64,000 nt of DNA from positions 104,603 to 168,602 of the forward strand of contig CAWDBH010000010.1 in the NCBI GenBank assembly GCA_963800555.1, given 5' to 3'. This document shows, one piece after another, positions 1,887-60,232 of the stretch. The notes under the pieces are model-generated. The model saw only the letters and a list, made by a program, of their open reading frames with translations. It was not told the origin of the DNA and made no database searches. A program made the translations under genes and the position numbers. Numbering within the stretch: the stretch's first letter is position 1; each line of letters starts with the position of its first letter. Source of the stretch: an uncultured Candidatus Micrarchaeota archaeon (lineage in GTDB: Archaea > Micrarchaeota > Micrarchaeia > Anstonellales > Bilamarchaeaceae).

Positions 1887-2321
1887 ATGAGAGTCTCTAG
1901 CACTTTCAATGATGGGGAGACGATCCCATCGAAGTTCAGCTGCCAAGGCCAGAACGTCAATCCTAAGCTCGAGCTCTCGGAGATGCCCAAAGGAGCGAAG
2001 TGCCTGGCCTTGATAATGGACGATCCTGACGCTCCGATGGGGACTTTCGTGCACTGGGTCGTCTGGAACATCCCGGTCTCGAAGGAGATCAAGGAAAACG
2101 CCAAGAACCTAGGAGTGGACGGGGTAGGGACCGTGGGCTCTCCTGGTTATCATGGGCCTTGCCCTCCGCCGGGACATGGCCCCCACAGGTACTTCTTCAA
2201 GGTCTATGCCCTTGATATTCTTCTTGAGCTGAAGCCCGGTTCTGATAAGGATGGTTTGCTGAAGGCTATGGAAGGGCATGTCCTGGCTTCTGCGGAATTG
2301 ATGGGAAGATTCGAGAGATGA
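1887..2321 (+). CDS. YbhB/YbcL (PEBP/Raf kinase inhibitor-like) family protein
   Basis: DDPDAP...FVHWVVWNIP...GPCPPPGHGPHRYFFKVYALD motifs. Confidence 0.9.
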   Translation: MRVSSTFNDGETIPSKFSCQGQNVNPKLELSEMPKGAKCLALIMDDPDAPMGTFVHWVVWNIPVSKEIKENAKNLGVDGVGTVGSPGYHGPCPPPGHGPHRYFFKVYALDILLELKPGSDKDGLLKAMEGHVLASAELMGRFER

Positions 2322-2498
2322 TCACGCGATCGGTTTCCTGACCGCGAGTTTTGTTATCTCGGTCGAGCAGGCGCCCATCTTCCTGCAAAATTCCTCGCAC
2401 AAGAGCGCCTGGGCCAACTCGTTGTATCCGAAGCCGCATTCCTCGCAGATATAAACCGGTTTTCCTTTATGGGTTTCCTGCAAGACCATGCAGGGCAT
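2322..2498 (-). CDS. Small Cys-rich protein (58 aa), putative metal-binding
   Basis: My translation: MPCMVLQETHKGKPVYICEECGFGYNELAQALLCEEFCRKMGACSTEITKLAVRKPIA. Below the track cutoff; replaces implausible track ORFs 2351..2533 and 2354..2539. Confidence 0.4.
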   Translation of the reverse strand: MPCMVLQETHKGKPVYICEECGFGYNELAQALLCEEFCRKMGACSTEITKLAVRKPIA

Positions 2499-2535
2499 CC
2501 ACCGCTAATATTCTTACGCTTTTCGCCCGCTAATC

Positions 2536-3519
2536 TCATTCAAGCTGGGCTTTGGCCTGGGATTCCAGGAATTCCATTTTCGGGCAGAAGACCAATGCGC
2601 CGTTGTGTTCTACCTCGATCGTCTCGAATGCATCGCGCAGTCTCGATTCCAGCGTCTGGAAGACTGGCGCGAAACAGGTGTTCGCTCCCTCTACGCTCAA
2701 TCCGACCCCCGGGACTTCGTATGGGATCCGTTTCGGGATGTATGAGTTGAATGTCGTGGAATACCTTGCGTTCGGTTCGAGCCGGATGCTCAAATCTCCG
2801 ACATGAGCGTGTTGGAATCCCATCCCCATGATGTCTGTCCTCAGGATGGTCCCCTCGCTCAGATAAGACATGAATTCCTGGTAGCTCGAGAATTGCCTGC
2901 TATCAAGATAGATGCTGTAAGCAGGGATGTTGTCGATGAGTTCGTTGCTGTATCTCACGTGGTATGAGCTGCCGTGGACTTTGTTGTAAGCGGTCTGCCA
3001 GAACTCGATCGATAGATCGGATATCTTCTGGCAAAGCTCGTGATTATCCGGATGTTTGGCCAATTCCTTCACGATATCCTGGGCTTGCGCGCAGATCCTT
3101 TTCGCGTTTTCAACGCCCTCTTCAAATCCTTCGTCCCGGCGGTAAATCCATGCGAAATCGCCCGTAGTTTTCTCGATATATTCCTTATTCGCAGCCTCGA
3201 TCAACTCTGTGGATTTGGCTATCTTTCTCACGATGTCCACATTGGCGATAGCGAACATCAATGAGCAGATTGACTGATATACATGGGTGAAAAGCTTCCG
3301 GTGCGCGAGAGCCATCTTCTGTTCATCTGCTTTCGAGTATTTCCCTATCGTTTCCTGCGTCGCAGGGAAAAACACGTAATGCCTGTCGAAAGTAGAGCTT
3401 TTGCCAGCCAGCGATTCCATAAGCGGGAGGGCTCTGAAGGCCCCGTCCTTGCTGAGGCTCAAATGTCTGAAACCTCTGGAGATAACTTCATTTTGAGGGG
3501 TAATAGGACTCTGAACCAT
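2536..3519 (-). CDS. Hypothetical protein (327 aa)
   Basis: Long ORF with an AT-rich promoter-like region upstream (3520-3580). I recognise no family motif. Confidence 0.6.
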   Translation of the reverse strand: MVQSPITPQNEVISRGFRHLSLSKDGAFRALPLMESLAGKSSTFDRHYVFFPATQETIGKYSKADEQKMALAHRKLFTHVYQSICSLMFAIANVDIVRKIAKSTELIEAANKEYIEKTTGDFAWIYRRDEGFEEGVENAKRICAQAQDIVKELAKHPDNHELCQKISDLSIEFWQTAYNKVHGSSYHVRYSNELIDNIPAYSIYLDSRQFSSYQEFMSYLSEGTILRTDIMGMGFQHAHVGDLSIRLEPNARYSTTFNSYIPKRIPYEVPGVGLSVEGANTCFAPVFQTLESRLRDAFETIEVEHNGALVFCPKMEFLESQAKAQLE

Positions 3520-10779: not shown

Positions 10780-12246
10780 TCATTCTTCCAGATTTACGAT
10801 GCTCTCCTTCTCATTATCCTTTGCTGTGTATAAAATGTAATCGAACGGTAGGCCGAGACCCACGTCTGGAAGGCTATCATGGTAACCAGAATTCCCGACG
10901 TGCAGGTGCTGGTGCGGTAATATCGCAAGCGAGTCGCTGACGCTATCGGGCATCTTCACGCGCGTACAGAATTCGCGAAGAGCAACTCTGATAACTCCTA
11001 ACGTGTTTTCAGCAGTATTTGTTTTCTGAGAATTGGTAACCTCTTCGTAAACTCTATTCACTACGTATGCGCGCGCCTTTCTCCACTTCTCCACCGTCAA
11101 TTGACTTTGCTTGGGGAGCGAGCGCACTATCTCTTCTGGTGCCGGTCTTCCTTCCATGGCATTCCTGACGATAGCGCAACCAAGGCTTAGAAGAAAGAGT
11201 GCTGAGTTGACAAGTGACGGTTTCCCCGTATCCTTTAGCGCCTTTGGCGTAAATATCTGCCAGGCCGGGATTTCTGGGAAATAGCATTTTGCGCAATCGA
11301 TGACCGAGGATTGGGTGCCATTCGAGAGTATTGAGATCAAAATGCCGCGTTCTATAGCAGCATCAACGATTCCCTTCTGCTCTGCGGTGAAGTACCAGGC
11401 TTCCGGCCTGCTCCCGGAAATCCTTTTCTGGACCTCCCGTCCCATGGCAATCAAACGTTTCGTGCCGAGTTTGATGTCATTATTACCGAGCTTCCTAATC
11501 ACGAGACCGACATGATCAGGATCCCCAACTATCAAATGTACGATGGTATAGTTGTTTGCCATGACCCAGCGCGGAGCCGGGTGTTGAAATATATCCGGCA
11601 TGCTTTCGAGAAGAGAATCAGCTCTCCGGTAATAAACTGTTGAAAGCGATGCTACTTGTTCCGCAGCATTCTCCCCAAAACAGCTATTCAGTATATCGAC
11701 AGTACTCGAGAATCCGTAATCTATCAGCACACTCTTGAAAGCCGAATACACCACGTCGTTTAACCCACCTCTGGGGAGCAAGAGAGTGGAATGCAGGTCG
11801 AAGCTAACGCTCCGGTATCGTAAGTCTTTAAGACGATCTATGACTTCTGATGCGCAGGAGTCCTCAGTTACATCGTGTTCATGGAGCGGCGGTTGCTCGA
11901 CCCTTTCAATATCTCCGTCACTTGATTGGTAATATGTTACCCCGAAAGCCAAGGGGTTCTGCCTGACCTCATTCTCGGTCTTCGGATCAGGGTTTTTAAG
12001 GATGCGGAATATCGAGATTGGCTGTATTTTGTCGATCAGCGGCTCAACAGCCCGCTCTAGTTCTGCTTCGCTGTCCCTGACCGCGACCACGCGCTCTCCT
12101 TTGATACCGATCCACTTGTTCGGGTACATCCCCCCGATATCTTCCATATGTCGTCTGGCCCAGTCATAGCTGCGCTTGGCCTCTCCGGCCTGGTCAACGT
12201 TAATAATCCGGCTTATCTGCTTACGTTTTTCGTGCAAATATATCAC
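10780..12246 (-). CDS. Two-part protein: N-terminal DUF5678-like domain plus HAD-like fold with non-canonical catalytic residues
   Basis: N-terminus YPNKWIGIKGERVVAVRDSEAELERAVE. HAD-like motifs appear in order: FDLHSTLL (DxH instead of DxD), ILSNGTQ, TGKPS, VGNSGYHD (GN instead of GD). Confidence 0.6.
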   Translation of the reverse strand: MIYLHEKRKQISRIINVDQAGEAKRSYDWARRHMEDIGGMYPNKWIGIKGERVVAVRDSEAELERAVEPLIDKIQPISIFRILKNPDPKTENEVRQNPLAFGVTYYQSSDGDIERVEQPPLHEHDVTEDSCASEVIDRLKDLRYRSVSFDLHSTLLLPRGGLNDVVYSAFKSVLIDYGFSSTVDILNSCFGENAAEQVASLSTVYYRRADSLLESMPDIFQHPAPRWVMANNYTIVHLIVGDPDHVGLVIRKLGNNDIKLGTKRLIAMGREVQKRISGSRPEAWYFTAEQKGIVDAAIERGILISILSNGTQSSVIDCAKCYFPEIPAWQIFTPKALKDTGKPSLVNSALFLLSLGCAIVRNAMEGRPAPEEIVRSLPKQSQLTVEKWRKARAYVVNRVYEEVTNSQKTNTAENTLGVIRVALREFCTRVKMPDSVSDSLAILPHQHLHVGNSGYHDSLPDVGLGLPFDYILYTAKDNEKESIVNLEE

Positions 12247-12285: not shown

Positions 12286-13011
12286 TCATTGCCTTTCAAG
12301 CCGTGCAAGCATCACTTCTGCGGTTATCATCCTGATGTCGTGCTTCATCCCCCGATTATGATCTTCACCGAAATCCGATGAAATTAGTTGTAATGAGAAC
12401 CTCGCCATAGGCAGGTCTATCCCGGATATCCCTAATAAGTAAAGCGCATCAAGGACCTTTTTTAGTTCTAATACACTAGGATAAGTATGATTTTTTTTAT
12501 AGATATAGCCTTCCAGCGTATAATCAGGGAGAAGCGGGTTTCCAGCCGAAGGACCGATTGAAATACGTGCATTCTCAATTAGATAACTCACACGGGATCG
12601 GGCATTTTTGATTACTTTCGCATGTTCTGCTGAAATATCGGAAATAACTCCAGTATCCTGATTAAATTCGGCAAGCATCAACCTGGCAGCGAGGGCCCTT
12701 CTTTTAGGGACCGTTTTCCCAGAGGAAATAAGACAAAGAGCCTGTTTAATGACGTCACGGTGAGCTTCTTGGTCTGCCGCTTCCAGAAGATATATCTTGG
12801 GGAGCGAATATTCCAAACGATTGCCGAGCCTAGAGTCAGACAAATGGCGTTCTGTACGTTTCACCAATCTAGCCAGATTCTCAGCGCAAATTGTTATGCT
12901 CTCGCTGACATCCCGAGTAGCAAGAATCTCAGCCAAGGGCCTTGCTTTGATTGTGACGACCTTGTAAGTCCTCCTATCATAGTATGTTTGGGGCATCATT
13001 TGTTTCACCAT
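12286..13011 (-). CDS. Hypothetical protein (241 aa), middle gene of a three-gene operon
   Basis: ORF abuts the upstream gene with no gap (13012/13011). Confidence 0.55.
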   Translation of the reverse strand: MVKQMMPQTYYDRRTYKVVTIKARPLAEILATRDVSESITICAENLARLVKRTERHLSDSRLGNRLEYSLPKIYLLEAADQEAHRDVIKQALCLISSGKTVPKRRALAARLMLAEFNQDTGVISDISAEHAKVIKNARSRVSYLIENARISIGPSAGNPLLPDYTLEGYIYKKNHTYPSVLELKKVLDALYLLGISGIDLPMARFSLQLISSDFGEDHNRGMKHDIRMITAEVMLARLERQ

Positions 13012-14298: not shown

Positions 14299-16266
14299 TC
14301 AGCGGACGCCCAGGAATTCTCTGTTCAGCAGCCATGGACCCGGAATGCCGATTTCCCCATGCAGGAGATTACCCTCAGGGGTCACGTATGTGCCCTTATA
14401 TGTGTTGGGCGAAGAGCTGCCCGTTGGTCCGGTGAATAGCTGTGACTCGAATGTGGGGGCTTTGTTGTACTGACCGAAAAGGCGGAGCATCGGATCGAAC
14501 TGGTTAGCAGGTCCGCTCCACATATCCCCCCAGCTGAGCAGATTCGTCTTTCCAGGTACATACGCTATGTCCACGACATGCATGCCCCCTCGGGTATTCG
14601 CAGTGGCCACAACAGTATGAATGCCATTCGCACGGTAGAAATCACCGACGAAATCAGCGGCGCCTGCGCACAATGTGACCCCTGGCTGTGGATATGGTGT
14701 ATTATGCGTGCTGTACCAAGTGGCAGCGCCCTGCAGGTATGCGAGTAGCTGATTGTTATCCACGGACGCGACCTTAATGACCGAGGGATCCAGGAAGTTT
14801 CCGGCCATGAGGGCGCTTTGCGCCCCTTGAGCGTATGCGACCTGTTGCATGAAAGCGAGCAGGAATCTGCCGGCGTTTATCACATCGTCGGTGGAAGCGC
14901 CTTTGTACTTGGCTGTGAAATCATCGAAGCTCTTCGCTCCGAGCAGCCTGCTCTTTGCGTTATTGTCCACGGTATCCCAATTTGCATCTCCGGATCGTCC
15001 GAATCCGTAAGGACCTGGATTCTGCGTCGTGGGGATATCAGTGGTCGCCTGCGGGACCCCTCCCGGACCCATACGCTCATATTGGGAGCTTATCACCGTG
15101 TTCATACGCGGTCCAGCGATGACCAGGTTAAGTCCAGCAATGATCATGACGTCATTGCCCGGATTTATGTCCGGGTTCCAGTGGGTGATGCCTCCTCTTA
15201 CAAATACGTCTCCGGTCGCCCAGTCGCCGAAATTCATGGTTCTCGAAATACTGCCGCCGTACATGGATTTTATCACACCGTAGTTTGCGAATGGCCCTAT
15301 GGAATAATTAGAGAACCTGAATTGAGCTCCCATAGAAACGCTCTCGAGCTGTGGAGCATAATATCCGATGTATGCTGTCCTTATCGGAGTGCTCGCAGCG
15401 AAATAGAAGTTAGGCGCCCCATAAACCAGAATCCTCTTGTTGTATTCAAGGGACGCGCCGCCTGCGATGTTGAGATAACTGTCGTCTCCCAACGGATAAG
15501 AGAATGCTCCGATTCCGAAGGCTCCCAACCTCAGTCGCCATTTATTGTCCGCGCCGAATGGTTGCGAATATCCCACACCTATCGCGTGCGAGGTGTAAAG
15601 ATAAGAAGGCAGATATCCTACCGCGCTGACACGACCGTAATACATGCCCGTAAAATGCCCCAGGTCCAGGCTCTCTTTCACGGACATGGTAGCGAATGGG
15701 GCCGATAGTGCTCCGAACCAGATATTCCCTCCATCGAACCTGAGCATGTTGTTACGGCTGAAATTATAAGCCATGAAAGCCGAAACGGCAGAACCCGCTT
15801 CGTTCGATAGGATGCCTCCGCCTCCGCTGACTTTATGATTGAGACTTATAGGCCGCTCATTTCCGTTCATATCGACTTTTTCAATGCCGCCAAGAGCCGG
15901 ATCACGGTAATCCGGTTTTGGAGGCGTACTCGAGATTGGAACGTCGGATGGCTTTTCGGTGTCAAATCTCATCTCTATCGTGCCTACGTCGACATCTACG
16001 GTAGAATTCCTTGGAGCCGCTTCTGTGGGAGAGGCTGGTTCTTCTGCTTTGGGGGACTCCTCAGCTGCTATTGGGACAGGCATCTGAGCCTCTTGCGCAT
16101 ACGCTCTCCTTTCACATAATGGGGTCGATATCATGATTGCCGCGGCGGCCACTGCGGCACTCAATCCGAATGCTCCTAGACGAGTGTTTGCTTTTTCTGC
16201 CGTCTCGGTTTGCTTCCTTGTCTCGCTTCCGTGCTTCGTAAATCGTAATTGCATTATATCTACCAC
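14299..16266 (-). CDS. Signal-anchored secreted protein: Pro/Glu linker, beta-strand-rich aromatic/Gly region, C-terminal transglutaminase-like Cys-His-Asp domain
   Basis: N-terminal hydrophobic segment LGAFGLSAAVAAAAIMI. Alternating patterns in the middle, for example WRLRLGAFGIGAFSY and SVSMGAQFRFSNY. C-terminus GVTLCAGAADFVGDFYRANGIH...GGMHVVD...WGD. Confidence 0.65.
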   Translation of the reverse strand: MVDIMQLRFTKHGSETRKQTETAEKANTRLGAFGLSAAVAAAAIMISTPLCERRAYAQEAQMPVPIAAEESPKAEEPASPTEAAPRNSTVDVDVGTIEMRFDTEKPSDVPISSTPPKPDYRDPALGGIEKVDMNGNERPISLNHKVSGGGGILSNEAGSAVSAFMAYNFSRNNMLRFDGGNIWFGALSAPFATMSVKESLDLGHFTGMYYGRVSAVGYLPSYLYTSHAIGVGYSQPFGADNKWRLRLGAFGIGAFSYPLGDDSYLNIAGGASLEYNKRILVYGAPNFYFAASTPIRTAYIGYYAPQLESVSMGAQFRFSNYSIGPFANYGVIKSMYGGSISRTMNFGDWATGDVFVRGGITHWNPDINPGNDVMIIAGLNLVIAGPRMNTVISSQYERMGPGGVPQATTDIPTTQNPGPYGFGRSGDANWDTVDNNAKSRLLGAKSFDDFTAKYKGASTDDVINAGRFLLAFMQQVAYAQGAQSALMAGNFLDPSVIKVASVDNNQLLAYLQGAATWYSTHNTPYPQPGVTLCAGAADFVGDFYRANGIHTVVATANTRGGMHVVDIAYVPGKTNLLSWGDMWSGPANQFDPMLRLFGQYNKAPTFESQLFTGPTGSSSPNTYKGTYVTPEGNLLHGEIGIPGPWLLNREFLGVR

Positions 16267-32340: not shown

Positions 32341-35300
32341 TTATCCCATTTTTTCTGAGAAATGGCTGGCTTTGGCCCATTCAAGGGCCTCAGCATTGAA
32401 TCTCTGCAATCGATTCTCTTCGAATTTTGTGCAGGTGTGTTCAATGAGGGCGATGCATCTTTCATCCTTGACCGCGGCCTTCATCGCAGCGAGGTTAGCT
32501 TTAGGATTCGCTGCATAATCCTGGTAGGCGTTCACAAGGAATTGGAACTTCTGTTCTACTTCCTCCGGTTCGGGGGCGCCGGTCGCTGATTCATCCGTGG
32601 CAAGCCGGATGGCGGCGGAATTGAAATCAACTTTTTTTGATTCTGGTAGATCCAGCCTTCCATTCCAGTACCTCCTGATAAGGAAGATATCCCTGGGTGT
32701 CAGTCCCATCCCTGTCATCTGAGCTTCCGCTTCCTGCGCGCTCCCTGAAGAGGAATATAGTGCATAAGCCTCGGTCATAACGCGGAATCTCTGCTTGATG
32801 GCACCTGTGATGGTGAGGATATTCAATTCCGGCATGGGCTTGTCCGAGACCGCTGATTTCCCAGTTCCCTGATCTACACGGGCCTTGGCCTGCGCGATAT
32901 TGCCTGCCCTTACCATGTAGATGAGCGGGGAGACCCCGTTCAACAAAGGAGTTAGCGGGCTGCCCGTCTCATGGAGCCTTCGGATTCGCTCGCGTCCCTG
33001 AGAGCCCGTGACTATGGTTTTTCGGCGCGCGATTTTCGGCTGCTCATGCGCAATTTGGGCAGTCTGGACATCATACTCTATTATCGGAGTCATGAGCGAG
33101 TCGGTTTTTGCCGAAAGCTGAGGTATCTGGGTCGGGGAGCCGAATCTTGATATCTGGCCCGTGCCGACAGATTGGATGAATTTCAGGAACATGCCGTCTT
33201 CTGTCACGGCGACGCAATAATCGGTTTTGCCGTCTGCCGAGCGGACGACGACGTTCAGGTATTTTCCGTAAACGCCCTCGTCCCATCCAGTGACCCACGA
33301 ACGGACGAACGTGGATGGGAGCTGGTTCTTGTCGGAGATGTCCCATACCGGGGCACCGCGCGTGATCTCGTCCTGTATCATCTGTTCCCCACCTCTGACC
33401 ATACTCACAGTAGTAGCCACGGTCTTCTCCATATTCGGTTTTAGCCCCAATGACGGGAGGTCGATATGCGCCATACGCATGGGCGTGCCGGCTGCAAGGA
33501 GGGAATCCAGATGTTCCTGGACTGCGAGGTCATAGGCCTGGTAATGCTCGGCGAATACAGTGTTGCCTTTATTGTAATGCCCCTCGAGGTTGTCGCATCC
33601 CGCGAACCTTCTCCACACGCCTTGCGACTGTGACAGGTATGCAACCGAGAATTGCGTGTTTCCGTCCGTGGTCACATAGACCGGAACGACGTAGTCCAGC
33701 CTGCTGTGCACCCCATCACCGACAAGCATCGGCTTGCCGAAAGCCACGCTCTGATGCTCGTTTATGACAAGTGAGGGGCCCGGAACGAACGCGGCTTCGT
33801 TATCAAGCATTATCTTGTGCAGTCCTGCCGCGAAATCCTGCGCGATGGCGTTCACTTCAGATCCGGACTGAGCAGGATCAAATGGGAAAAGATGGGCATC
33901 AAGCATCGCTTTCCGGGCTTCTGCGGCCGCGCTGCTGGAGTGAGGGGCTTCAGACTGCGCTTGAGGAGGCATTTGACCCTTCTCCGAGGCTTGCGGCTGC
34001 TGGGGAGCCGCCGCTTCCGCGTCTTCCTCGGCTTGCCACGGCGCCAAAGGCGCTTCCTCGTCTTTGTCCGCATGCCACTCCTGGAACGAGGCGGGTTTGC
34101 CATTTTCAGCCTCGGTGGACTGCTGAGGGGGAGTCCCCGCCGCCTCTTCATCGTAAATAGGCGCTTCTTCGCCTTGCTCCGCATGCCATGCCTGAAGTGG
34201 AACTTTTCGCTGGGCAGATGCGTCTGCATGGACGTTTGGAGTTGGGGTTGATGGGGAAGCCTTTTTCCAGCCTCCTGCATTTGGCTGGCTGGCACTGGGA
34301 GCCGCCGCCTCTTCATCGTAAATAGGCGCTTCTTCGCCTTCCTTTGCCTGCCATACCTGCAAGGGAGTTTCCTGTGCCGCGGCTGCAGGACCATGGTTTC
34401 TCGTACGAACCCATGCCAAGGCCGCGGTTTCAAACTTACCCATGCGGCTGCTCTCCGAAGCCTCGAAAATCTTCGGTATGGCGGCGACACTGCCCGCGTC
34501 TTTTATGTGCTCCCTCAGCCTTATTATGGACCGGGTTGCGGCGAATTCCTGGTATGCCTGCCGGATGGATTCGAATTTTGCCTGGATTTCCCCAGCACTC
34601 GGATCCGACCTGAGCTTCTTGATAGGGCTTAGCGTGAACGTATCCCTTAGAGCCAGGGATGCCCTGGCCTCGCCCATCAGAGCACGGTCAGTTTCCTCAG
34701 ATATCTCGGTTGGAGCCTCGCGACAAAGGGCGGCCTCCCGGGCGTCAAGGCCATATGCTTTCATCCGCCGCTCGGCTTCTGCCGGATTAGTTTGATAGAG
34801 CGCATTTACAGCCTGGAGAAGGGATACCCTGTTGTGGATATTATTTGCCTTGGTACCTTGCCTTGCAACAGCCTCAAACCGCTGCTTGCGCTCGGAATCA
34901 GTCGTCAACTTCCCGGTGCATCCCTTCAGCACGGCAACTTCCGCTGGGGAAAGGCGGTAGGTATCGATAAGCCGGGATAATTCAGCTTCTGAAGGGTTAT
35001 TCTGATAATGGAAATAAGCGGTATTCAGCTGATTCACCCTTTTCTCGACGCTCGCCTCATCGGCCCAGCTGGTGGCCCTTGCATGGAATGCTTGCTTCCG
35101 TTCCACTTCAAAAGCCGTTAATATTCCCTGGACGCCTTTAACGAAAAACTCTTGGTCGGAAAACAGATCAGTTCCTTCGAACTTACTGGTAAAAATTTCG
35201 TGGAGCTTGGCTGAAACGCCCGGCTGACCTGAGATGATGAAAGCTAAGGCTTCCTCCAACTTCTCTGCCCGGTGAGATTCCAAAGCCATCGTTTCCGGTT

Positions 35301-36273
35301 TGCGCCCCCCCGGCCCTTTTGCAAGTTCCTCGATGCCGGGGATGACATCCCCCGGAACGCCTCCGCGGAGGCTATACTGCCTGATAACTGCGATATCCTC
35401 CGGCTGGAAACCCAATCCCTTCATCATCCCCACGGCTCGATCCGGATTCGATTCATACATAGCGTAAGCCGCATCAAGTAGGAAAAACCTGTTCCTTATA
35501 TCAGCATCCAGGATGATGGCACGCGTGGCGGGCCCGACTGAACCCGCTGCTCCAGATGAAGCGGACGGAGGCGGCTCTGGCGGGGTCGACCCGCTGGGTG
35601 GTGGAGGAACCTCAACCGGGGCTTCGGTTGGCGAACCCGAAGCCTGCGAAGGCATCGCAGGTGCCTTGACTGGGGATTTCTGAGCAGGCGTTGCCGGGAG
35701 AGGCCTTTTCGAGGCAGCCGGTCCTTTGGTCTGTGAAGCGATATCCACTTTTCCTTTATCCTTTTGTAGTGCAGACGCACCAGCTGAAGGTTTCTGAGTA
35801 AGCGGTTTGGTCTCGGTTTTGCCTGCGGCAGTTGTTTGGGCTGGAGGCGGTGGAAGCGGTCTTGTGGATGGTTTGGTCTCGGTTTTGCCTGCGGCAGTTG
35901 TTTGGGCTGGAGGCGGTGGAAGCGGTCTTGTGGATGGTTTGGTCTCGGTTTTGCCTGCGGCAGTTGTTTGGGCTGGAGGCGGTGGAAGCGGTCTTGTGGA
36001 TGGTTTGGTCTCGGTTTTGCCTGCGGCAGTTGTTTGGGAAGATGAAGCGGCGGCTTTGATTCCTGGTAACGCCCTTGCAATCGTGCCCGCCACATTCGTA
36101 CCGCTATCGACCTGAGCATGAGCCGCGTTCACCGCGGTGGACACTTTCGCATGGTCGCTTTGTTTCGGTTCATGAGGGATCGCCGGTTGTCTTTCCGTAT
36201 GCATCTGGTGCTCTTGCGACTCGCCTTCTGTCGTTTTTTTCTTAAGTGCCACTGGTGTCTCTTGAGGTGTCAT
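32341..36273 (-). CDS. Giant repeat-containing protein (1310 aa), function unknown
   Basis: Uninterrupted 3.9-kb ORF. Contains perfect 22-aa Pro-rich repeats, three Trp-acidic repeats, six ~40-aa helical modules of the form (R/K)F..L..AY..Y..NP..A...M...GL, and two beta-rich globular regions. Confidence 0.85.
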   Translation of the reverse strand: MTPQETPVALKKKTTEGESQEHQMHTERQPAIPHEPKQSDHAKVSTAVNAAHAQVDSGTNVAGTIARALPGIKAAASSSQTTAAGKTETKPSTRPLPPPPAQTTAAGKTETKPSTRPLPPPPAQTTAAGKTETKPSTRPLPPPPAQTTAAGKTETKPLTQKPSAGASALQKDKGKVDIASQTKGPAASKRPLPATPAQKSPVKAPAMPSQASGSPTEAPVEVPPPPSGSTPPEPPPSASSGAAGSVGPATRAIILDADIRNRFFLLDAAYAMYESNPDRAVGMMKGLGFQPEDIAVIRQYSLRGGVPGDVIPGIEELAKGPGGRKPETMALESHRAEKLEEALAFIISGQPGVSAKLHEIFTSKFEGTDLFSDQEFFVKGVQGILTAFEVERKQAFHARATSWADEASVEKRVNQLNTAYFHYQNNPSEAELSRLIDTYRLSPAEVAVLKGCTGKLTTDSERKQRFEAVARQGTKANNIHNRVSLLQAVNALYQTNPAEAERRMKAYGLDAREAALCREAPTEISEETDRALMGEARASLALRDTFTLSPIKKLRSDPSAGEIQAKFESIRQAYQEFAATRSIIRLREHIKDAGSVAAIPKIFEASESSRMGKFETAALAWVRTRNHGPAAAAQETPLQVWQAKEGEEAPIYDEEAAAPSASQPNAGGWKKASPSTPTPNVHADASAQRKVPLQAWHAEQGEEAPIYDEEAAGTPPQQSTEAENGKPASFQEWHADKDEEAPLAPWQAEEDAEAAAPQQPQASEKGQMPPQAQSEAPHSSSAAAEARKAMLDAHLFPFDPAQSGSEVNAIAQDFAAGLHKIMLDNEAAFVPGPSLVINEHQSVAFGKPMLVGDGVHSRLDYVVPVYVTTDGNTQFSVAYLSQSQGVWRRFAGCDNLEGHYNKGNTVFAEHYQAYDLAVQEHLDSLLAAGTPMRMAHIDLPSLGLKPNMEKTVATTVSMVRGGEQMIQDEITRGAPVWDISDKNQLPSTFVRSWVTGWDEGVYGKYLNVVVRSADGKTDYCVAVTEDGMFLKFIQSVGTGQISRFGSPTQIPQLSAKTDSLMTPIIEYDVQTAQIAHEQPKIARRKTIVTGSQGRERIRRLHETGSPLTPLLNGVSPLIYMVRAGNIAQAKARVDQGTGKSAVSDKPMPELNILTITGAIKQRFRVMTEAYALYSSSGSAQEAEAQMTGMGLTPRDIFLIRRYWNGRLDLPESKKVDFNSAAIRLATDESATGAPEPEEVEQKFQFLVNAYQDYAANPKANLAAMKAAVKDERCIALIEHTCTKFEENRLQRFNAEALEWAKASHFSEKMG
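35804..36038. repeat. Perfect 66-bp tandem repeat, about 3.5 copies, in frame inside the giant gene
   Basis: Unit GGTTTGGTCTCGGTTTTGCCTGCGGCAGTTGTTTGGGCTGGAGGCGGTGGAAGCGGTCTTGTGGAT starts at 35804, 35870, 35936 and 36002. It encodes QTTAAGKTETKPSTRPLPPPPA on the minus strand. Confidence 0.95.
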
Positions 36274-37861: not shown

Positions 37862-39353
<1,492 letters not shown>

Positions 39354-53299: not shown

Positions 53300-53748
53300 C
53301 GGGTAAAGGGATTGGCAACCGCAATCTGACGGAGGATTATCCATATCGTGCGGCTGCCTAACCCCAGTCCCATACACTATCAGTATCGGATGATAGTGTT
53401 TGGAGCGTGATTTGATTTTTCGGTTCCGACCATGTCTTTTTCCACAACCATCTATCTGCACCAAAATATATAAAAAGTATATTATTATATATAATTATCA
53501 AGGCGGGAAGCCCATACATAGGTTGCACCCTGTGGCTTATAAGCGCTTCCCGTCCTATTTTCTCTCTCCTTTTAGCTCGCACCGGATCTCAGACGCTTAA
53601 CACCACGGCGTGCAGGATTTTCATGGGATCAACAGTATTACTCTTGTCTCAGTGTTAAAATTTATAATAATACGATATAAAATATAGAGAATTCGTATAA
53701 ATCTATATAAACCTTACATAATATATATAAAAGTTATAAGTGATTTGG

Positions 53749-54930
53749 ATGACAACGCACCTTTTCGCATCGCTCGACCTGGAAAAGTTCATGCCGCTCC
53801 TGAATATGGGCATCTCTCCGTTTTCAGCCTCGATCCATTACGGCCATGCGGTTTTCGAAGGGATGAGCATAATCAAGAACGGAAATCGTCTTTCGGTTTT
53901 CCACCCCTGGCTCAATCTGGAGCGTCTGCGCGAGAGCGCTTCGGCTGTGGGGATGGAAACCGAATTCGCTGACGACGCGGTGGTTGAGAACATCTTCCGT
54001 CTGGCATCCATGTGCGGCCTCCACCGGAAAAACGCCCACATCCCGAGGATAAAAAGAGCCGGGAAATCTGTGGGGCGGTTTTATGTCCGACCCTTGCTTT
54101 TCTCTGAATCGGCGGGTTTGGGATTGAGCGCACCTTCGCGGACGCGCCTCGCGACCATGATACAACCGATGGGAGAGTATGTGGGCGATGGAGAAGGCAT
54201 CGATACGATGATATACCCGAATCCGCGGGTGCTCCCGTTCCCAGGAGCCAAAGTATCATCGAATTACCAATTCTCGATCCAGGCGAAGAAGAAACTGATG
54301 CTCTTCAATATCATCAACGGCTCCGAATGCTCCGAAGTCCTCTTTACGAACGAACGAGGATTCCTCGTTGAAGGCAGCGGGGAGAACGTCATACTCGTCA
54401 AGGATGACGAATTCATAACGCCGCCGCCATCAGAGGGCGTCGTACCGGGAATCTCATTGCGCTTCATTTCATTGGCCGCGCGCGAGCATGGCTTCCGGTT
54501 CCGTTTCGGGACATTCACATCTGACGAGCTGGCTGACGCTGACGAAGTGCTCCTCAGTGGGAACGCCTCCGGACTGGTGCCGGTCAGGAGGGTCTATGAG
54601 ACCGGCGCGGATTTCCGGGCAAAAACGGTTTACGAGATCTCATCCCGGCCAGGTAGCACCATCCGTTCGGTCAAAGACGAATACGAGAGGATGGAGATAG
54701 GGGAGGGTTCGCATTCAGCCTTCCATGCGGTGATTGATGACTGGATCGATGATACAATGCAGGAAACGTTATATCTCCGTGCAACGGACCTGTTGCGGAA
54801 AAAGAAGCATACGGTGCTCACTATTTCTCCTGAAGTCAATGAGACTGCGGCCGCCAACGGCCTTTGCGGGAAGCTTAGCACATCCCGGCTGCGCTCGGAA
54901 TGCTTCTTCGGAGAGACGTCGGGTGATTGA
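53749..54930 (+). CDS. Divergent class IV PLP-dependent enzyme (BCAT/ADC-lyase fold) with C-terminal extension
   Basis: IHYGHAVFEGM and EGSGENVILV motifs. About 90 extra C-terminal residues relative to ilvE at 44560. Confidence 0.75.
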   Translation: MTTHLFASLDLEKFMPLLNMGISPFSASIHYGHAVFEGMSIIKNGNRLSVFHPWLNLERLRESASAVGMETEFADDAVVENIFRLASMCGLHRKNAHIPRIKRAGKSVGRFYVRPLLFSESAGLGLSAPSRTRLATMIQPMGEYVGDGEGIDTMIYPNPRVLPFPGAKVSSNYQFSIQAKKKLMLFNIINGSECSEVLFTNERGFLVEGSGENVILVKDDEFITPPPSEGVVPGISLRFISLAAREHGFRFRFGTFTSDELADADEVLLSGNASGLVPVRRVYETGADFRAKTVYEISSRPGSTIRSVKDEYERMEIGEGSHSAFHAVIDDWIDDTMQETLYLRATDLLRKKKHTVLTISPEVNETAAANGLCGKLSTSRLRSECFFGETSGD

Positions 54931-54931
54931 T

Positions 54932-55693
54932 ATGGCAAAGACAAAGAGCTCCGTGGATTGGGCGGATTTGGACACCGGCACATTGTATGTGCGGGATAGG
55001 AAGCTTCTTAGCATGATAACTGAGTGCGATTTCATCGATGCCATATTCCACACATGGCTGCACAAGAAAGCCGCTCCGAACGAGAAACGGATGTTGAATT
55101 CCGTGATGGTCAGTTTCTGCGGCGGATGGAGCATCATCCCTCCAGTCGTGTTCTCGGCGCGCCTGGCCGCGACTACCGGCGCCCCCATGGCCCAGTGCCT
55201 CGCCGCGGGGTTCTGCGCCGGAGGGCCCGCGCACACGTCCGCGATCCAACGTACCATGGACGTCTATATGTCGATTCCGCTCGGCCGGATAGACAGATAC
55301 GTGGAAAATACGCTCAAGAAGGGGGAGAAGATTCCCGGGTTCGGGCATCCGGTCGTGGACAAGGATCCAAGGCCCCAGGTGCTGCGCAAGCTATTCGAAG
55401 AATCAGGCATCAAAGGGGATGCGGTCAGGAAGTTCGACAGGATAGAAGCCATCTTGTCTGAACGTAAAGGCATCTATGGCAACATCGATGGAATCAGCGG
55501 CGCGATACTCATAGACCTCGGTTTCAAGGACCCGTCATTCGGACCGGCGTTTTTCCTCATCGGAAGATCCCTGTCTATGACTGCCCATATCATAGAGGAG
55601 TACAAGAACAAGCCTTTCAGCGCACTGGATATGGTCTACCCCGGATTCAGGGAGGTCGATTACGAGTATAGCGGCCGCCTCGAGGGGGATTGA
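54932..55693 (+). CDS. Short citrate synthase family protein (citryl-CoA lyase-like, 253 aa)
   Basis: GFGHPVVDKDPR and GNIDGISGAIL motifs. Lacks the N-terminal ~120 aa of full citrate synthases. Sits 1 nt after the upstream stop. Confidence 0.75.
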   Translation: MAKTKSSVDWADLDTGTLYVRDRKLLSMITECDFIDAIFHTWLHKKAAPNEKRMLNSVMVSFCGGWSIIPPVVFSARLAATTGAPMAQCLAAGFCAGGPAHTSAIQRTMDVYMSIPLGRIDRYVENTLKKGEKIPGFGHPVVDKDPRPQVLRKLFEESGIKGDAVRKFDRIEAILSERKGIYGNIDGISGAILIDLGFKDPSFGPAFFLIGRSLSMTAHIIEEYKNKPFSALDMVYPGFREVDYEYSGRLEGD

Positions 55694-55694
55694 T

Positions 55695-56534
55695 ATGGCT
55701 AAAGGAGGCGTCATCGCGGATATCCTCGCGATCATGATGCCCAATCGATCGTTCACGGCCTGCCTTGCGCTCGTCGCTGGCATGCTGATGAGCGGGCATT
55801 TCGACATCGTATTCATTATCTTCGGGGTCCTTACCTGCATCTGCGTCTATTGCACGTATGCGGTGTTCAACAATATCTGCGATGTGGAAGGGGACAAGAT
55901 CAACGACCCCGAGCGGCCGCTCGCGCGAGGCTCGCTAAGCATTCGGTTCGCATGGATCCTGATGTTCTCGCTCGCGATAGCCGGCATCGCTTTCTCGCTC
56001 GTAGTATCATGGATTTTCGCTTTGAGCAATCTGCTGTATGTCTTCTTCGGAGTATTGTATTCCAAGGTCACGAAATCCATGGGTATGCTTTCATATATGA
56101 CCCTCGTCACGACGCATATAGTGACTCCCATGGTGATAGGTTATCTCCTGTTCCACCCATTAGACGAGAAGATAATATTCGCAGCGACATTCATGTTCGT
56201 GACCGAGATATTCGCTTTTTCCATCAAGGATTACAAGGATGTGGAAGGCGACAGGAAGACCGGGATGAAAACCCTTCCGGTCCAGATCGGGGTGGAAGAA
56301 GCATCCAGGATAACGTTCGTGGGCCTCTGCCTTCCCATAGCGGTCGTCTGGCTCCCATGGAAGATGCTCGGATTATCCAATGCTTTTCTCGTAATCTACC
56401 TGGTAGCGATAGCGATACGGATATCATTCGGGACCAAGCTGCTAATGAATCCGAGCGCGGACACCGCAAAGGTCATCCTTAAAAACTTTAGAATCGTCCT
56501 TCTGATGCAAATGATTGCGTGGTGTTTCTGTTGA
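55695..56534 (+). CDS. UbiA family prenyltransferase
   Basis: NNICDVEGD and DYKDVEGD Asp-rich motifs with multiple TM segments. Sits 1 nt after the upstream stop. Confidence 0.88.
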   Translation: MAKGGVIADILAIMMPNRSFTACLALVAGMLMSGHFDIVFIIFGVLTCICVYCTYAVFNNICDVEGDKINDPERPLARGSLSIRFAWILMFSLAIAGIAFSLVVSWIFALSNLLYVFFGVLYSKVTKSMGMLSYMTLVTTHIVTPMVIGYLLFHPLDEKIIFAATFMFVTEIFAFSIKDYKDVEGDRKTGMKTLPVQIGVEEASRITFVGLCLPIAVVWLPWKMLGLSNAFLVIYLVAIAIRISFGTKLLMNPSADTAKVILKNFRIVLLMQMIAWCFC

Positions 56535-56554
56535 GCGGGGATCTTATTTCAAAA

Positions 56555-57118
56555 ATGATAGCTCTGAGCATCGTCAAGTTCGATAAGGGTACGGTACGAG
56601 TGAGGGGAAGGCTGATAACCATGATCTCCACCGACACCCTGCTCTATATGGAACGGCATCTTTCAGAGAGGATTGGTGAGAGGGAAACCGAGCAATTCAT
56701 CTATGAATGCGGTCTCCACCAGACGAAGATCGGCGCAAAAAGATATCTCCAGAAAAAGGGAGAACTCTCCAGGCTTTACCAAAGGGTCCCCGTGACCGGT
56801 GACGCGTCCATGGAGATGGGTTGGGAAGTCTTGAAGCTGGCTGGTTGGGGGGACACGCGCCTTGATGAGTTCATCGGAAAAGGAGAGAAGGCGATCGCAA
56901 GGACGAAGAATTCACCGACTGCTGAGGCGTATCTCGTCGAATACGGGAAGAGCGATAAACCGGTTTGCCATTACCTGCGCGGGCTGCTCGCCGGTGTGGC
57001 GGAAAGCGTATCCGGGCATAGGTATTCTGCTGTGGAAACGAGCTGCAAGGCTATGGGCATGACACAGGAATGCGTTTTTGAGCTGAAACAATTGAAATCG
57101 AAAAAGGCAACTCAGTGA
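56555..57118 (+). CDS. V4R (4-vinyl reductase) domain protein
   Basis: PVCHYLRGLLAGVAESVSG pattern. An alternative GTG start at 56519 overlaps the ubiA-family gene. Confidence 0.7.
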   Translation: MIALSIVKFDKGTVRVRGRLITMISTDTLLYMERHLSERIGERETEQFIYECGLHQTKIGAKRYLQKKGELSRLYQRVPVTGDASMEMGWEVLKLAGWGDTRLDEFIGKGEKAIARTKNSPTAEAYLVEYGKSDKPVCHYLRGLLAGVAESVSGHRYSAVETSCKAMGMTQECVFELKQLKSKKATQ

Positions 57119-57840
57119 AGTTTTATTCCTTTCACTCCTATGGATATCTCGTGCATACCCCCATTATAAGCGCATCGGCGCATCTTCACTATGGATAATG
57201 TCCTCGTGACCCCTGCAGTCCCTAGGAGATTATAATCCAGGATGATCAAACCATCGCAGGCGAACTCGCTGATCGTATCCCGGGAGTAGAATTTCGACGA
57301 CTTCGCGAGTTCGGATATCAGGATCGTGGTGCATTTGAGGCGGCGTATCTCGGAGAGGACATGATAGAGCATCTGCTTTTTCACCTGCTCACCGATCGCG
57401 ATCGGCGGCCGGTGGGGGGTCTTCTCCATGAATGCTATCAGGTCTTCCGGAAGATTCCGGTATGACCCGCAGTACACCGCAAGGACGGATAGCGAATCGA
57501 GCACGATCCGCTTAGCGCCCAGTTTCTTCACCCGCTCCCCCATCTCGTCGAGAAGCACGTAGACGTCGTTCGGCTGGAGTTCGACTATCTCGAGGTGCCC
57601 GTCCGAAATCGCTTTCTTCACTTCCAACCCTATCCCTTCCATCTGGTCGATGAGGAATTCGGGCCTATTTTCAAGGGTGAAGAATATTCCATGCTCCCCG
57701 GCTTTCACGCCTTCCATCAGGAATTGCATCGCCATGATGCTTTTCCCCGAACCGGGCGGACCTGAGATGAGGATCTGGTCCCCTTCAGGTATGCCGTCCT
57801 GCAGAATACCGCGAAACGAATGGAAAGACGCGAATTTCAT
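57112..57840 (-). CDS. KaiC/RecA-superfamily ATPase
   Basis: Walker A GPPGSGKS, Walker B IVLDS. Start moved to MKFASF (57840). Confidence 0.85.
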   Translation of the reverse strand: MKFASFHSFRGILQDGIPEGDQILISGPPGSGKSIMAMQFLMEGVKAGEHGIFFTLENRPEFLIDQMEGIGLEVKKAISDGHLEIVELQPNDVYVLLDEMGERVKKLGAKRIVLDSLSVLAVYCGSYRNLPEDLIAFMEKTPHRPPIAIGEQVKKQMLYHVLSEIRRLKCTTILISELAKSSKFYSRDTISEFACDGLIILDYNLLGTAGVTRTLSIVKMRRCAYNGGMHEISIGVKGIKLH

Positions 57841-57950: not shown

Positions 57951-58364
57951 ATGGACGATCTCGATAAACGTATCATTGAAATCCTTCAAAAAGACGCGAG
58001 CACGCCGCTATCGAAAGTAGCGGATACCATCGGGGTCCCCAGGCCTACGGTTTACCTGAGATTCAACCGGATGAAAGAGGAAGGCGTGATCCGGGGCTTC
58101 AACGTGGTTTTGGGCAGCTCCAAAAGAGGTCCCATGAAAGCCGCGAACCTGAAGGTCAAGGATTACCTTCTGTCAGAACTCGGACCTAGGCTCGTATCCA
58201 ACCTGGGCAAGAAGATCTCCGAACGCAGCGAGATCCTAGTCGCTGTGCGGGTCTCGAGGAACACTATCCTGGTGGTCTGGGAAGGGACATCGTTCGACCC
58301 TAGGGAGTACAGCGAGGTCGTCGGGATAGAGGCCGTGGATGCCGAGATATTCAAACCGATCTGA
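57951..58364 (+). CDS. Lrp/AsnC family transcriptional regulator
   Basis: LDKRIIEILQKDASTPLSKVADTIGVPRPTVYLRFNRMKEEGVI. Confidence 0.88.
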   Translation: MDDLDKRIIEILQKDASTPLSKVADTIGVPRPTVYLRFNRMKEEGVIRGFNVVLGSSKRGPMKAANLKVKDYLLSELGPRLVSNLGKKISERSEILVAVRVSRNTILVVWEGTSFDPREYSEVVGIEAVDAEIFKPI

Positions 58365-59003: not shown

Positions 59004-59216
59004 ATGGATACTACGGACCTTAAGGCGAAGTGCGTTTGCGCCAGATGCCCCACATATGCCGAATGCATGCGTAAAGGCGGCGAGCTGCTCTTCTGCTTAG
59101 AGGACAAATCTTCATGCGAACTGGAGCGATATGGGTGCATATGCGAAGGGTGCCCGGTTGAGAAGCTGAATGGATTCAATGGCAGATATTTCTGCGTAAG
59201 CGGGAAGAAATCATAA
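59004..59216 (+). CDS. Small Cys-rich protein (DUF2769-like pattern)
   Basis: MDTTDLKAKCVCARCPTYAECM...CLEDKSSCELERYGCICEGCPV. Start at ATG 59004. Confidence 0.6.
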   Translation: MDTTDLKAKCVCARCPTYAECMRKGGELLFCLEDKSSCELERYGCICEGCPVEKLNGFNGRYFCVSGKKS

Positions 59217-59951
59217 TCTCATCAGGTTCCATTCATCTGCCGCGTATCGCGTTTTCGCCAGATCCCTCGCCCGAGTCATCTCAGAATCCGAAAGGCTCCC
59301 AAGATAAAACTCCTTCCCTCTGGTGAATCCAGAGACCATGGCTCCGTACGATTCATCCCATGAGACCATGCGCTGCTGCGAGATCGAAGTGACCCTTTCC
59401 TTCGCGATCTTGATCATTTTGTCCCTGATTTTCTCGTCCGATACTTTAAGAGCCGAGAACATGCGCTCGACATCAACCGCGTATAAGATGGTGCCGTGCT
59501 GGAGCAATACCCCGTTCCGCCTTGTCTGCGCATTCCCCGAGATCTTCTTCCCATTCACGATGATGTCGTTGATGGGCTTGAATTCGGAGTTAATACCGAT
59601 AAGTGCAAGGGAATCGATTATACAGCCGCATATCTGTCGATAGGATTCGAGTATATCCTTGGAGAACATGCTTTCCTTGGCGATGACGCTGTAGGTTATC
59701 TCGCCATCATGATAGACCGCGCCGCCGCCGGTCCTCCTTCTGACGACATCTATCCCCAACTCAGCGCAGTTCTTCCGATCCACTTCCTTATCCAGGCATT
59801 GGAAATACCCTATTGATACTGCGACGGGATCCCATCCGTAGAACCGTATCGTCGGTGACGCTCCGAGCGCAACTGCTTCGCTGATAGCCTCGTCTATGGC
59901 CATGTTCATGAAAGCATCGTTCTGCGAGTATTCGATGACACGCCACATCAT
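59211..59951 (-). CDS. lplA: Lipoate-protein ligase A, catalytic (N-terminal domain) subunit
   Basis: RRRTGGGAVYHD and the GKKISGNAQ lysine motif. Start at MMWRVIEY (59951). Confidence 0.88.
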   Translation of the reverse strand: MMWRVIEYSQNDAFMNMAIDEAISEAVALGASPTIRFYGWDPVAVSIGYFQCLDKEVDRKNCAELGIDVVRRRTGGGAVYHDGEITYSVIAKESMFSKDILESYRQICGCIIDSLALIGINSEFKPINDIIVNGKKISGNAQTRRNGVLLQHGTILYAVDVERMFSALKVSDEKIRDKMIKIAKERVTSISQQRMVSWDESYGAMVSGFTRGKEFYLGSLSDSEMTRARDLAKTRYAADEWNLMRL

Positions 59952-60232
59952 TTCGATACCGCCTTGGCGAATAACCTCGCTATGTCCTTGGCAGACACCC
60001 CGATCAGAGACGCGTCGCGTTTCTGGAGGCATTGCGCTACCCTAGATTCTATAGCAATCTCAGCAGAATCAAGCGGCAAACCTATGAGAGAATCTTCGAT
60101 ATCCTCTATAGAATCCTCTGGGTGGAGGAAGAAGTCGCCGCTTATCCTCACCCGATCGGCAGTGGTGCTATCGGTCGACCAGATCTCTATGCAGACCAGC
60201 TTGCCGCCAGCGATTTTTTCCTCGCACTGCAT
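59948..60232 (-). CDS. lplB: Lipoate-protein ligase C-terminal domain protein (LplB-like)
   Basis: GGKLVCIEI...ISGDFFLHPED pattern. Its stop overlaps the lplA start by 4 nt. This is the only credible part of track ORF 59948..60760. Confidence 0.7.
   Translation of the reverse strand: MQCEEKIAGGKLVCIEIWSTDSTTADRVRISGDFFLHPEDSIEDIEDSLIGLPLDSAEIAIESRVAQCLQKRDASLIGVSAKDIARLFAKAVSK

Follow-up and report, generated by a model that had tools for sequence, protein, structure and literature searches.

The stretch of DNA analysed here, called the window throughout, comprises 64,000 nucleotides of contig CAWDBH010000010.1 from an uncultured Candidatus Micrarchaeota archaeon. Between positions 53749 and 57118 of its plus strand, the list of open reading frames (ORFs) and a Pfam scan reveal four co-oriented ORFs, all with unambiguous Pfam domains, which form a genuine, translationally coupled operon. 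The unit that is conserved in other genomes is not these four genes; its core consists of a short protein of the citryl-CoA lyase (CCL) type, a UbiA prenyltransferase and a V4R-domain protein, together with a KaiC-like ATPase and an Lrp-type regulator encoded immediately downstream. The parts all come from known families, and it is their combination that is new. Tentatively, we propose that the module makes a specialised prenylated lipid or metabolite. The genes in question are the following.

53749..54930, plus strand: divergent class IV pyridoxal phosphate (PLP) protein with the fold of branched-chain aminotransferases (BCAT), 393 aa, PF01063 at 99.5 bits
54932..55693, plus strand: short citrate-synthase-family protein of the CCL type, 253 aa, PF00285 (C-terminal part only) at 104.7 bits
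55695..56534, plus strand: UbiA-superfamily membrane prenyltransferase of the DGGGPS/ChlG-like branch, 279 aa, PF01040 at 113.3 bits
56531..57118, plus strand: V4R-domain protein, 195 aa, probable start codon TTG at 56531, PF02830 at 46.9 bits (gathering score 31)
57112..57840, minus strand: single-domain KaiC-like ATPase, 242 aa, convergent with the V4R gene and sharing 7 nt with its 3' end, PF06745 at 151.6 bits (gathering score 26.6)
57951..58364, plus strand: Lrp/AsnC-type regulator, 137 aa, divergent from the KaiC-like gene, PF13404 and PF13412

The original prediction for this locus, made from the window alone, was of a four-gene unit of unusual composition that corresponds to no characterised pathway. 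As to the extent of the unit, the CCL, UbiA and V4R genes are indeed conserved together, but the PLP gene is dispensable, and the KaiC-like and Lrp genes, which lie beyond the four, belong to the module. As to its composition, the literature searched, which did not take in the main survey of KaiC proteins, contains no description of a V4R-prenyltransferase, a CCL-UbiA or a KaiC plus V4R neighbourhood.

Conservation and layout of the module

Conservation was followed by tblastn against GTDB and metagenome loci and by Pfam annotation of the neighbourhoods, with flanks of +/-10 kb. The closest genomes are all labelled Micrarchaeota, and the order CCL-UbiA-V4R-KaiC-Lrp, with the KaiC-like gene on the opposite strand, occurs in about 14 distinct lineages. 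Adjacency of the first three genes persists down to identities of 53% for the CCL-like protein, 33% for UbiA and 36% for V4R, and the longest contigs in the match sets of the CCL, UbiA and PLP proteins coincide in size. The KaiC-like gene adjoins V4R wherever the locus reaches far enough and always has the Lrp gene beside it; Lrp is conserved at 42-94% identity in all loci, among them L025 and L027, which are described below. The genes on either side are unrelated from locus to locus: L023 and L024 have PAS sensor kinases and ribosomal genes and L021 has NurA/HerA and diphthamide synthesis genes, whereas in the window, L002, L005 and L019/L035 the module follows a 2-oxoacid dehydrogenase (OADH) block that is found in neither L021 nor L023.

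Within the module the third enzyme varies. In L021 the gene order is swapped to UbiA-CCL-V4R and an extra gene precedes the KaiC-like one, encoding a member of the geranylgeranyl reductase family (TIGR02032, 91 bits, E=1e-25). L025 (P0130, 35% UbiA identity) lacks the CCL gene and has UbiA, a 358-aa protein with squalene-hopene-cyclase repeats, V4R, KaiC-like and Lrp; L027 (P0131, 28% UbiA identity) likewise lacks it and has UbiA-V4R, an orthologous 347-aa cyclase-like protein, KaiC-like and Lrp. In L044 (P0139) the gene directly upstream of UbiA encodes a 480-aa protein whose C-terminal part is a V4R domain, and a protein carrying a DDxxD-like motif is encoded downstream. The closest stand-alone relatives of the UbiA protein, in L046 and L047, are as distant as these and lie in housekeeping neighbourhoods without V4R, KaiC or Lrp. 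Set against these, the sister loci define a stable association of UbiA, V4R, KaiC-like ATPase and Lrp in which the remaining enzyme may be a CCL, a cyclase-like protein or a reductase. L027 also holds, on the minus strand beside its main module (2063-3350), a second pair of KaiC-like and V4R genes followed by a gene for a MASE3-domain membrane protein, which points to KaiC-V4R pairs as a unit that can be reused.

In the window itself all three junctions of the operon are tight. The 1-nt spacers ahead of the second and third genes that were originally reported are real, the PLP/CCL and CCL/UbiA junctions reading GGTGAT TGA T ATG and GGGGAT TGA T ATG, and the UbiA and V4R genes overlap by 4 nt; together these bear out the description of the locus as a single, tightly coupled transcription unit. 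The GGTGAT and GGGGAT motifs resemble Shine-Dalgarno sequences and are complementary to the 16S rRNA 3' end, AUCACCUCC; the 16S gene encoded in the same window ends in GAUCACCUCC, which is complementary to the junction GGTGAT, and this complementarity fits translational coupling. The two junctions, at 54913-54934 and 55676-55697, are furthermore nearly identical over a longer stretch, GG(T/G)GATTGATATGGC(A/T)AA, with the common string GGxGATTGATATGGC; in both cases the upstream protein ends in G-D and the downstream one begins M-A-K. Against relatives that are 81-89% identical the four genes have dN/dS values of 0.06-0.13, excepting the C-terminal tail of the PLP protein at 0.22, and all four are under purifying selection.

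The start of the V4R gene had been placed at GTG 56519 or ATG 56555. When the 60 nt ahead of the gene were compared in 16 orthologous loci, an ATG, TTG or GTG was found to overlap the TGA of the upstream gene (NTGA) in every one, and the N-terminus that follows, M-S-x-D/E-L-L/I-S-K-x-I/L-A, is kept across the loci, with synonymous changes among close relatives (GAT/GAC, CTT/CTA/CTG, TCA/TCG and AAA/AAG). The most likely start in the window is therefore TTG 56531, which would overlap the UbiA stop codon as TTGA, and neither of the earlier candidates is supported.

Four other features of the window are referred to in what follows or bear on expression of the operon.

53300..53748: AT-rich intergenic stretch separating the OADH E3 gene from the operon, GC 0.34-0.44
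37862-39353, minus strand: complete archaeal 16S rRNA gene, 1428 bits
44560-45474: canonical ilvE, 178.5 bits
47706..53299, plus strand: lipoyl-synthase-like radical SAM gene and OADH genes for E1alpha, E1beta, E2 and E3, from Pfam and the ORF list

The AT-rich region upstream of the operon, correctly noted at the outset, extends over 450 nt with a GC content as low as 0.34, the drop to 0.34-0.38 lying within 53450-53900. It probably holds an archaeal promoter, for which a TATA-like ATATATATAAAAG about 15-27 nt ahead of the ATG is the candidate element. An Rfam scan of this leader returned no family (best E=0.61, far under the gathering score) and a tRNA scan found none; a scan for sigma-70 promoters and terminators gave nothing better than shuffled sequence, with models that are not relevant to archaea. 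No 23S rRNA gene accompanies the 16S gene within the window.

The proteins of the module

None of the four proteins of the operon passes a curated NCBIfam equivalog cutoff. The CCL-like protein has the truncated architecture of citryl-CoA lyases, its Pfam match being confined to profile positions 147-350 of 357. The original prediction of a protein of this size that retains the catalytic signatures agrees with that match and with the presence of GFGHP and NIDG. Its best PDB sequence match is 6hxp, the citryl-CoA lyase of H. thermophilus, and an AlphaFold2 model (pLDDT 88) superposes on the full length of 6hxp with TM scores of 0.78/0.77, the next-best matches being the CCL modules of ATP-citrate lyase. 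Residues H101, H139, D186, R147 and R212, mapped through alignments with 6hxp and 6abx, are invariant in 22 sequences of the family; we take the first three to be the equivalents of His274, His320 and Asp375 of pig citrate synthase and the two arginines those of Arg329 and Arg401. The catalytic triad and both arginines are thus shared with the H. thermophilus enzyme and the ATP-citrate lyase module. The proline after GFGH was at one point read as loss of Arg329, an idea that was dropped as its equivalent, R147, lies in the DPR motif and is invariant.

The protein differs from known citryl-CoA lyases in its substrate site. The window protein is 28% identical to 6hxp, and W66 (in 'GGW') is invariant throughout its family where citrate synthases and citryl-CoA lyases have the citrate-binding histidine ('DH' in the latter); we presume this position to be that of His238 of citrate synthase, which binds citrate or oxaloacetate. 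A literature search on the role of His238 returned nothing usable. After the catalytic histidine the family has H-T-S-A in place of H-G-G-A. In Asgard archaea and bacteria, ordinary short proteins of the CCL type have retained the histidine (DH or EH). Also unlike the known enzymes, the window protein is coupled to a membrane prenyltransferase and stays below the NCBIfam CCL cutoffs, the best model being NF004866 'citryl-CoA lyase' (130.4 against 245). No gene resembling succinyl-CoA synthetase occurs in the +/-10 kb around any locus, and no citryl-CoA synthetase partner was seen there.

The family is sharply bounded, with 44 clusters at 53-100% identity and the next sequence at 32%. One member that is 61% identical (L009, 4526-5362) stands alone on a GC-rich contig of bacterial appearance in a metagenome-assembled genome labelled Rhodomicrobiaceae, among neighbours that, judged by ORF size and translation start only, look like cytochrome c maturation genes; either horizontal transfer or mis-assembly or mis-binning would account for it. 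The nearest relatives outside the family, at 30-33% identity, are 416-aa citrate-synthase-like proteins of the Burkholderia cepacia complex (L041/L042, 8001-9251), which have an aromatic residue at the site equivalent to W66. They are encoded with an AurF-like oxygenase, a PLP decarboxylase, an AMP-ligase, an acyl-CoA dehydrogenase, a methyltransferase, TauD and an ABC exporter. This cluster has the appearance of one for a secondary metabolite and suggests that this branch of CCL-type proteins serves chemistry outside the tricarboxylic acid cycle.

By sequence comparison the UbiA protein is placed in the DGGGPS/ChlG part of its superfamily, closest to digeranylgeranylglyceryl phosphate (DGGGP) synthase and then to chlorophyll synthase. 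Its best PDB match is the DGGGP synthase of M. jannaschii (MJ0279, 6m31), which aligns from end to end (89.6 bits when the family profile is used) and has the same fold and length; the match to chlorophyll synthase 9sau is partial (residues 68-221), and the 4-hydroxybenzoate prenyltransferase 4od4 reaches 34.9 bits, this and the DPPR transferases falling far behind DGGGPS. Both Asp-rich motifs noted at the outset are present. Motifs 1-3 of the M. jannaschii enzyme (N..D...D, Y.....K and D..D...D) are defined in PMC9385802, and their residues N62/D66/D70, Y125/K130 and D180/D183/D187 are all conserved, as N59/D63/D67, Y122/K127 and D179/D182/D186. Identity to MJ0279 is only about 22%, however, and the window protein is encoded in a dedicated, regulated operon with CCL and V4R.

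Scores against NCBIfam models, given here as score and cutoff, place the protein in no named group: PRK12884 'prenyltransferase' 122 and 269; the ChlG model NF005742 82.8 and 313 and TIGR01476 70.3 and 212; the DGGGPS equivalogs NF009521 80.8 and 296, NF009522 73.9 and 353 and NF009512 60.9 and 278; and ubiA_other 43.6 and 180.8. ChlG and BchG are therefore second-best relatives, in partial alignment and far under their cutoffs, and no bch or chl gene occurs in any flank. Models for the MenA and UbiA enzymes of quinone synthesis match only at E=1e-5 to 1e-11, and menA at E=5e-4. The quinone-like product first envisaged for the cluster thus has little in its favour, the enzyme falling in the DGGGPS/ChlG branch. 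Its clade is small and sharply bounded: the family has 34 clusters at 90% identity (7 at 50%), all at least 44% identical, and in an exhaustive HMMER search with the family profile, which found 10,691 homologs, only 7 representatives exceed 200 bits, the next scores being 139 and about 125 bits.

For the V4R protein the closest PDB matches are the phenol sensor MopR (5kbe) and then MJ1460 (2osd). The motif P-v-C...E..C...C is invariant in 16 orthologs, and its Cys/Glu/Cys/Cys zinc site aligns to that of MopR; this motif and the V4R fold signature are common to the sensor domains of MopR, PoxR and DmpR, to MJ1460 and to the window protein. A weak match to BchJ was also found (TIGR02019, E=0.004). 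Unlike the phenol sensors, the window protein stands alone, at 195 aa, with no AAA+ or helix-turn-helix output domain, and its presumed outputs, the KaiC-like ATPase and Lrp, are encoded by separate neighbouring genes. An AlphaFold2 model from the single sequence was unusable (pLDDT 41).

Of all the proteins in the module the KaiC-like ATPase is the best conserved. Its Walker A motif, G.PGSGKS, is conserved, and it reaches the cutoff of no named archaeal KaiC subfamily (best model KaiC_arch_3, 115 against 249). An insert between Walker B and the C-terminal part, Y-R-N-L-P-E-D-L-I-x-F...P-P-I...K-Q-M, is kept even in L025 and L027. A related arrangement is that of the archaeal KaiC-like signalling hubs (Makarova, Galperin & Koonin 2017, cited in PMC5847659): here too the neighbourhood of a single-domain KaiC-family ATPase is conserved and includes a sensor-type protein and a regulator. 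The YRNLPEDLI insert is characteristic of the present subfamily.

The PLP protein is an IlvE-derived paralog and an accessory member of the module. It keeps HYG..FEG, Y112-V-R114, which is the BCAT Y-x-R carboxylate motif, and the Schiff-base lysine K168, and its best NCBIfam model is ilvE_I (TIGR01122, 114.7 against a cutoff of 245.6), with aminodeoxychorismate lyase (ADCL) models at 59 or less. A paralog of BCAT fold with a tail of about 90 aa, alongside a canonical ilvE elsewhere in the window, is what had been predicted, and both the tail and the ilvE gene are present; the tail and two insertions are absent from IlvE. The family has 12 clusters of 380-424 aa, on the same contigs as CCL, and its core has a dN/dS of 0.06-0.09. 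The gene occurs in about half of the lineages and is missing in L005, L007/L023, L008, L021 and L030, and in L019/L035 its position is taken by a normal 296-aa IlvE-type gene. Two orthologs that are 77-80% identical, in L003 (8824-9996) and P0116, have arginine for the Schiff-base lysine (GTRASSNYQ and GARVSSNYQ) while selection stays purifying (dN/dS 0.09), and may be non-catalytic or altered PLP proteins.

Possible products of the module

The UbiA protein, the reductase and cyclase-like partners in sister loci and the invariable presence of KaiC-like ATPase and Lrp point to membrane isoprenoid chemistry with a ligand-sensing arm. That the cluster makes or senses a prenylated molecule, as was originally suggested, is plausible given UbiA, these partners and V4R. 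We tentatively favour a specialised prenylated lipid or metabolite, the polar part of which would be furnished by a re-tooled CCL-type enzyme. This enzyme, with its altered pocket, would make or process a polar acceptor derived from an acyl or oxo acid, using a CoA thioester and a 2-oxo acid, and UbiA would transfer a polyprenyl chain, probably geranylgeranyl, onto a hydroxyl or carboxyl group of that acceptor in the membrane; in some lineages the BCAT-derived paralog may supply or bind the amino or oxo acid. V4R would bind the hydrophobic substrate or product, by analogy with BchJ beside BchG and with MopR for phenol, and might signal to the KaiC-like ATPase and Lrp and so regulate the operon. 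The bolder proposal of a new class of archaeal lipid or signal, in which a hydroxy or carboxy acid built by the CCL-type enzyme is prenylated through an ether or ester link and sensed by a V4R-KaiC-Lrp circuit, seems unlikely on present evidence.

The closest known parallel to this arrangement is the gene order bchJ-bchG-bchP, which we take to be that of photosynthesis clusters in purple bacteria (BchJ a V4R protein, BchG bacteriochlorophyll synthase and BchP geranylgeranyl reductase). There, as here, a stand-alone V4R gene lies beside a UbiA gene of the DGGGPS/ChlG branch, and a reductase is present also in L021. The bch system has neither a CCL-type enzyme nor KaiC and Lrp, whereas the module has no tetrapyrrole genes and its V4R protein has a zinc site of the MopR type.

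Several points weigh against a specialised product. A true DGGGP synthase is the best solved relative of UbiA, in full-length alignment, and several orthologs are named DGGGPS by JGI; the conserved motif residues are general features of UbiA proteins that do not discriminate between acceptors. The UbiA proteins associated with V4R, KaiC and Lrp are grouped in a neighbour-joining tree with weak support (50/100), the tree being a crude one in which undefined distances were capped and bootstrap values were 33/100 and 50/100. We infer what the acceptor is, which way the CCL reaction runs and that V4R signals to KaiC and Lrp, the acceptor and the role of the CCL-like protein from family chemistry only. 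Furthermore GGGPS, DGGGPS and CarS are reported in all major Micrarchaeota lineages (PMC12892359); a search of the supplement of that paper for K17105, DGGGPS and citrate synthase found nothing. Finally, the CCL-containing examples all come from one phylum, and part of their conservation may be inherited synteny.

The first of these points lead to the alternative of a housekeeping membrane-lipid operon, in which UbiA would be the fast-evolving DGGGP synthase of the lineage and form the second ether bond of archaeol, V4R would be a chaperone for geranylgeranylglyceryl phosphate (GGGP) or geranylgeranyl diphosphate (GGPP), the CCL-like protein would serve central carbon metabolism or provide acetyl-CoA for the mevalonate pathway, and KaiC and Lrp would regulate lipid synthesis. 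We regard this as somewhat doubtful, with a good deal to be said for it: besides the structural match, the motif residues and the JGI names, there is the geranylgeranyl reductase in L021, in L019 an MVD-like gene follows 3 kb downstream, the CDP-alcohol phosphatidyltransferase encoded in the window makes it probable that the organism requires DGGGP, and no second UbiA was seen in the 64-kb window or in any flank. It would seem less easy to reconcile with scores so far below the DGGGPS cutoffs (81 of 296 and 74 of 353), or with the distribution of a clade that is tiny and was found in about 8 GTDB species when DGGGPS should be phylum-wide. The closest stand-alone UbiA proteins, in L046 and L047, look like ordinary DGGGPS, and neither GGGPS nor CarS is encoded nearby (64-kb window and +/-10 kb flanks). 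Moreover, an ordinary DGGGP synthase does not explain why the gene is so strictly coupled to that of a CCL-type enzyme with an altered site, or why a cyclase-like protein replaces the latter in the sister loci.

Prenylation of an aromatic, quinone-type head group, which V4R would bind, the PLP protein acting in the manner of an aminodeoxychorismate lyase, is improbable. The best solved relative of V4R is indeed a phenol sensor whose zinc site it shares, the homogentisate prenyltransferases fall within the same broad branch of UbiA (a weak match to NF009525, E=1e-13), and a cupredoxin gene lies nearby, but the MenA and UbiA models score far under their cutoffs, 4od4 gives only 35 bits, and no chorismate, menaquinone or futalosine genes occur in any flank. 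The PLP protein has the BCAT motif and scores 115 bits with ilvE against 59 or less with ADCL, and the module can do without it. A further idea, that the CCL-type enzyme is a lyase or synthase of the 3-hydroxy-3-methylglutaryl-CoA type linking leucine catabolism, through BCAT and OADH, to mevalonate, is chemically attractive and found no supporting evidence; it was not adopted, and OADH and the PLP gene are missing from many loci.

That functionally unrelated genes lie together by accident or through kinship of the genomes compared is hardly credible: whilst the CCL-containing loci are all from Micrarchaeota and several of them, though not all, have the OADH block and LplA in common, the trio with KaiC and Lrp persists where both flanks are wholly different and the order is rearranged, start and stop codons overlap or lie 1 nt apart in all lineages, and partner genes are kept down to 28-35% UbiA identity. 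Structure, coupling and conservation together thus argue for a functional module. The original prediction had named a UbiA clustering firmly with DGGGP synthases among unconserved neighbours as the sign of fortuitous adjacency; what was found is a UbiA that passes no DGGGP-synthase cutoff and neighbours that are conserved with it.

Neighbouring genes and significance

The window belongs to a DPANN genome with a full 2-oxoacid dehydrogenase complex, a lipoyl-synthase-like gene and, nearby, a lipoate-protein ligase (LplA, 59211-60032); the last of these and the cupredoxin gene lie downstream of Lrp, and housekeeping genes and the CDP-alcohol phosphatidyltransferase gene are found elsewhere. A TspO/MBR-family membrane protein (539-1048, plus strand, 164.7 bits), of a family that binds tetrapyrroles and sterols, is encoded next to a cyclophilin. 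A 1310-aa ORF at 32341-36273 on the minus strand has no Pfam match, and the same is true of other large ORFs at 2536-3519, 10780-12246, 12286-13011 and 14299-16266.

Whether, and in what way, DPANN archaea synthesise their own membranes is debated, and a conserved, regulated operon around a DGGGPS-like prenyltransferase in Micrarchaeota with larger genomes bears directly on this. If the UbiA protein is the DGGGP synthase of the lineage, then ether-lipid synthesis would be linked, unexpectedly, with a Claisen enzyme that depends on CoA, with a V4R protein and with a KaiC/Lrp circuit; otherwise a new prenylated metabolite is to be expected from the module. In both cases the module provides the first recurrent genomic partner for stand-alone archaeal V4R proteins, a concrete neighbourhood for one subfamily of KaiC-like ATPases and a CCL-type enzyme with a changed substrate site. 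Should the reading as a new lipid or signal be true, it would give the KaiC-based signalling proposed for archaea a new route of input, and Micrarchaeota, which live with or without hosts, a lineage-specific membrane component.

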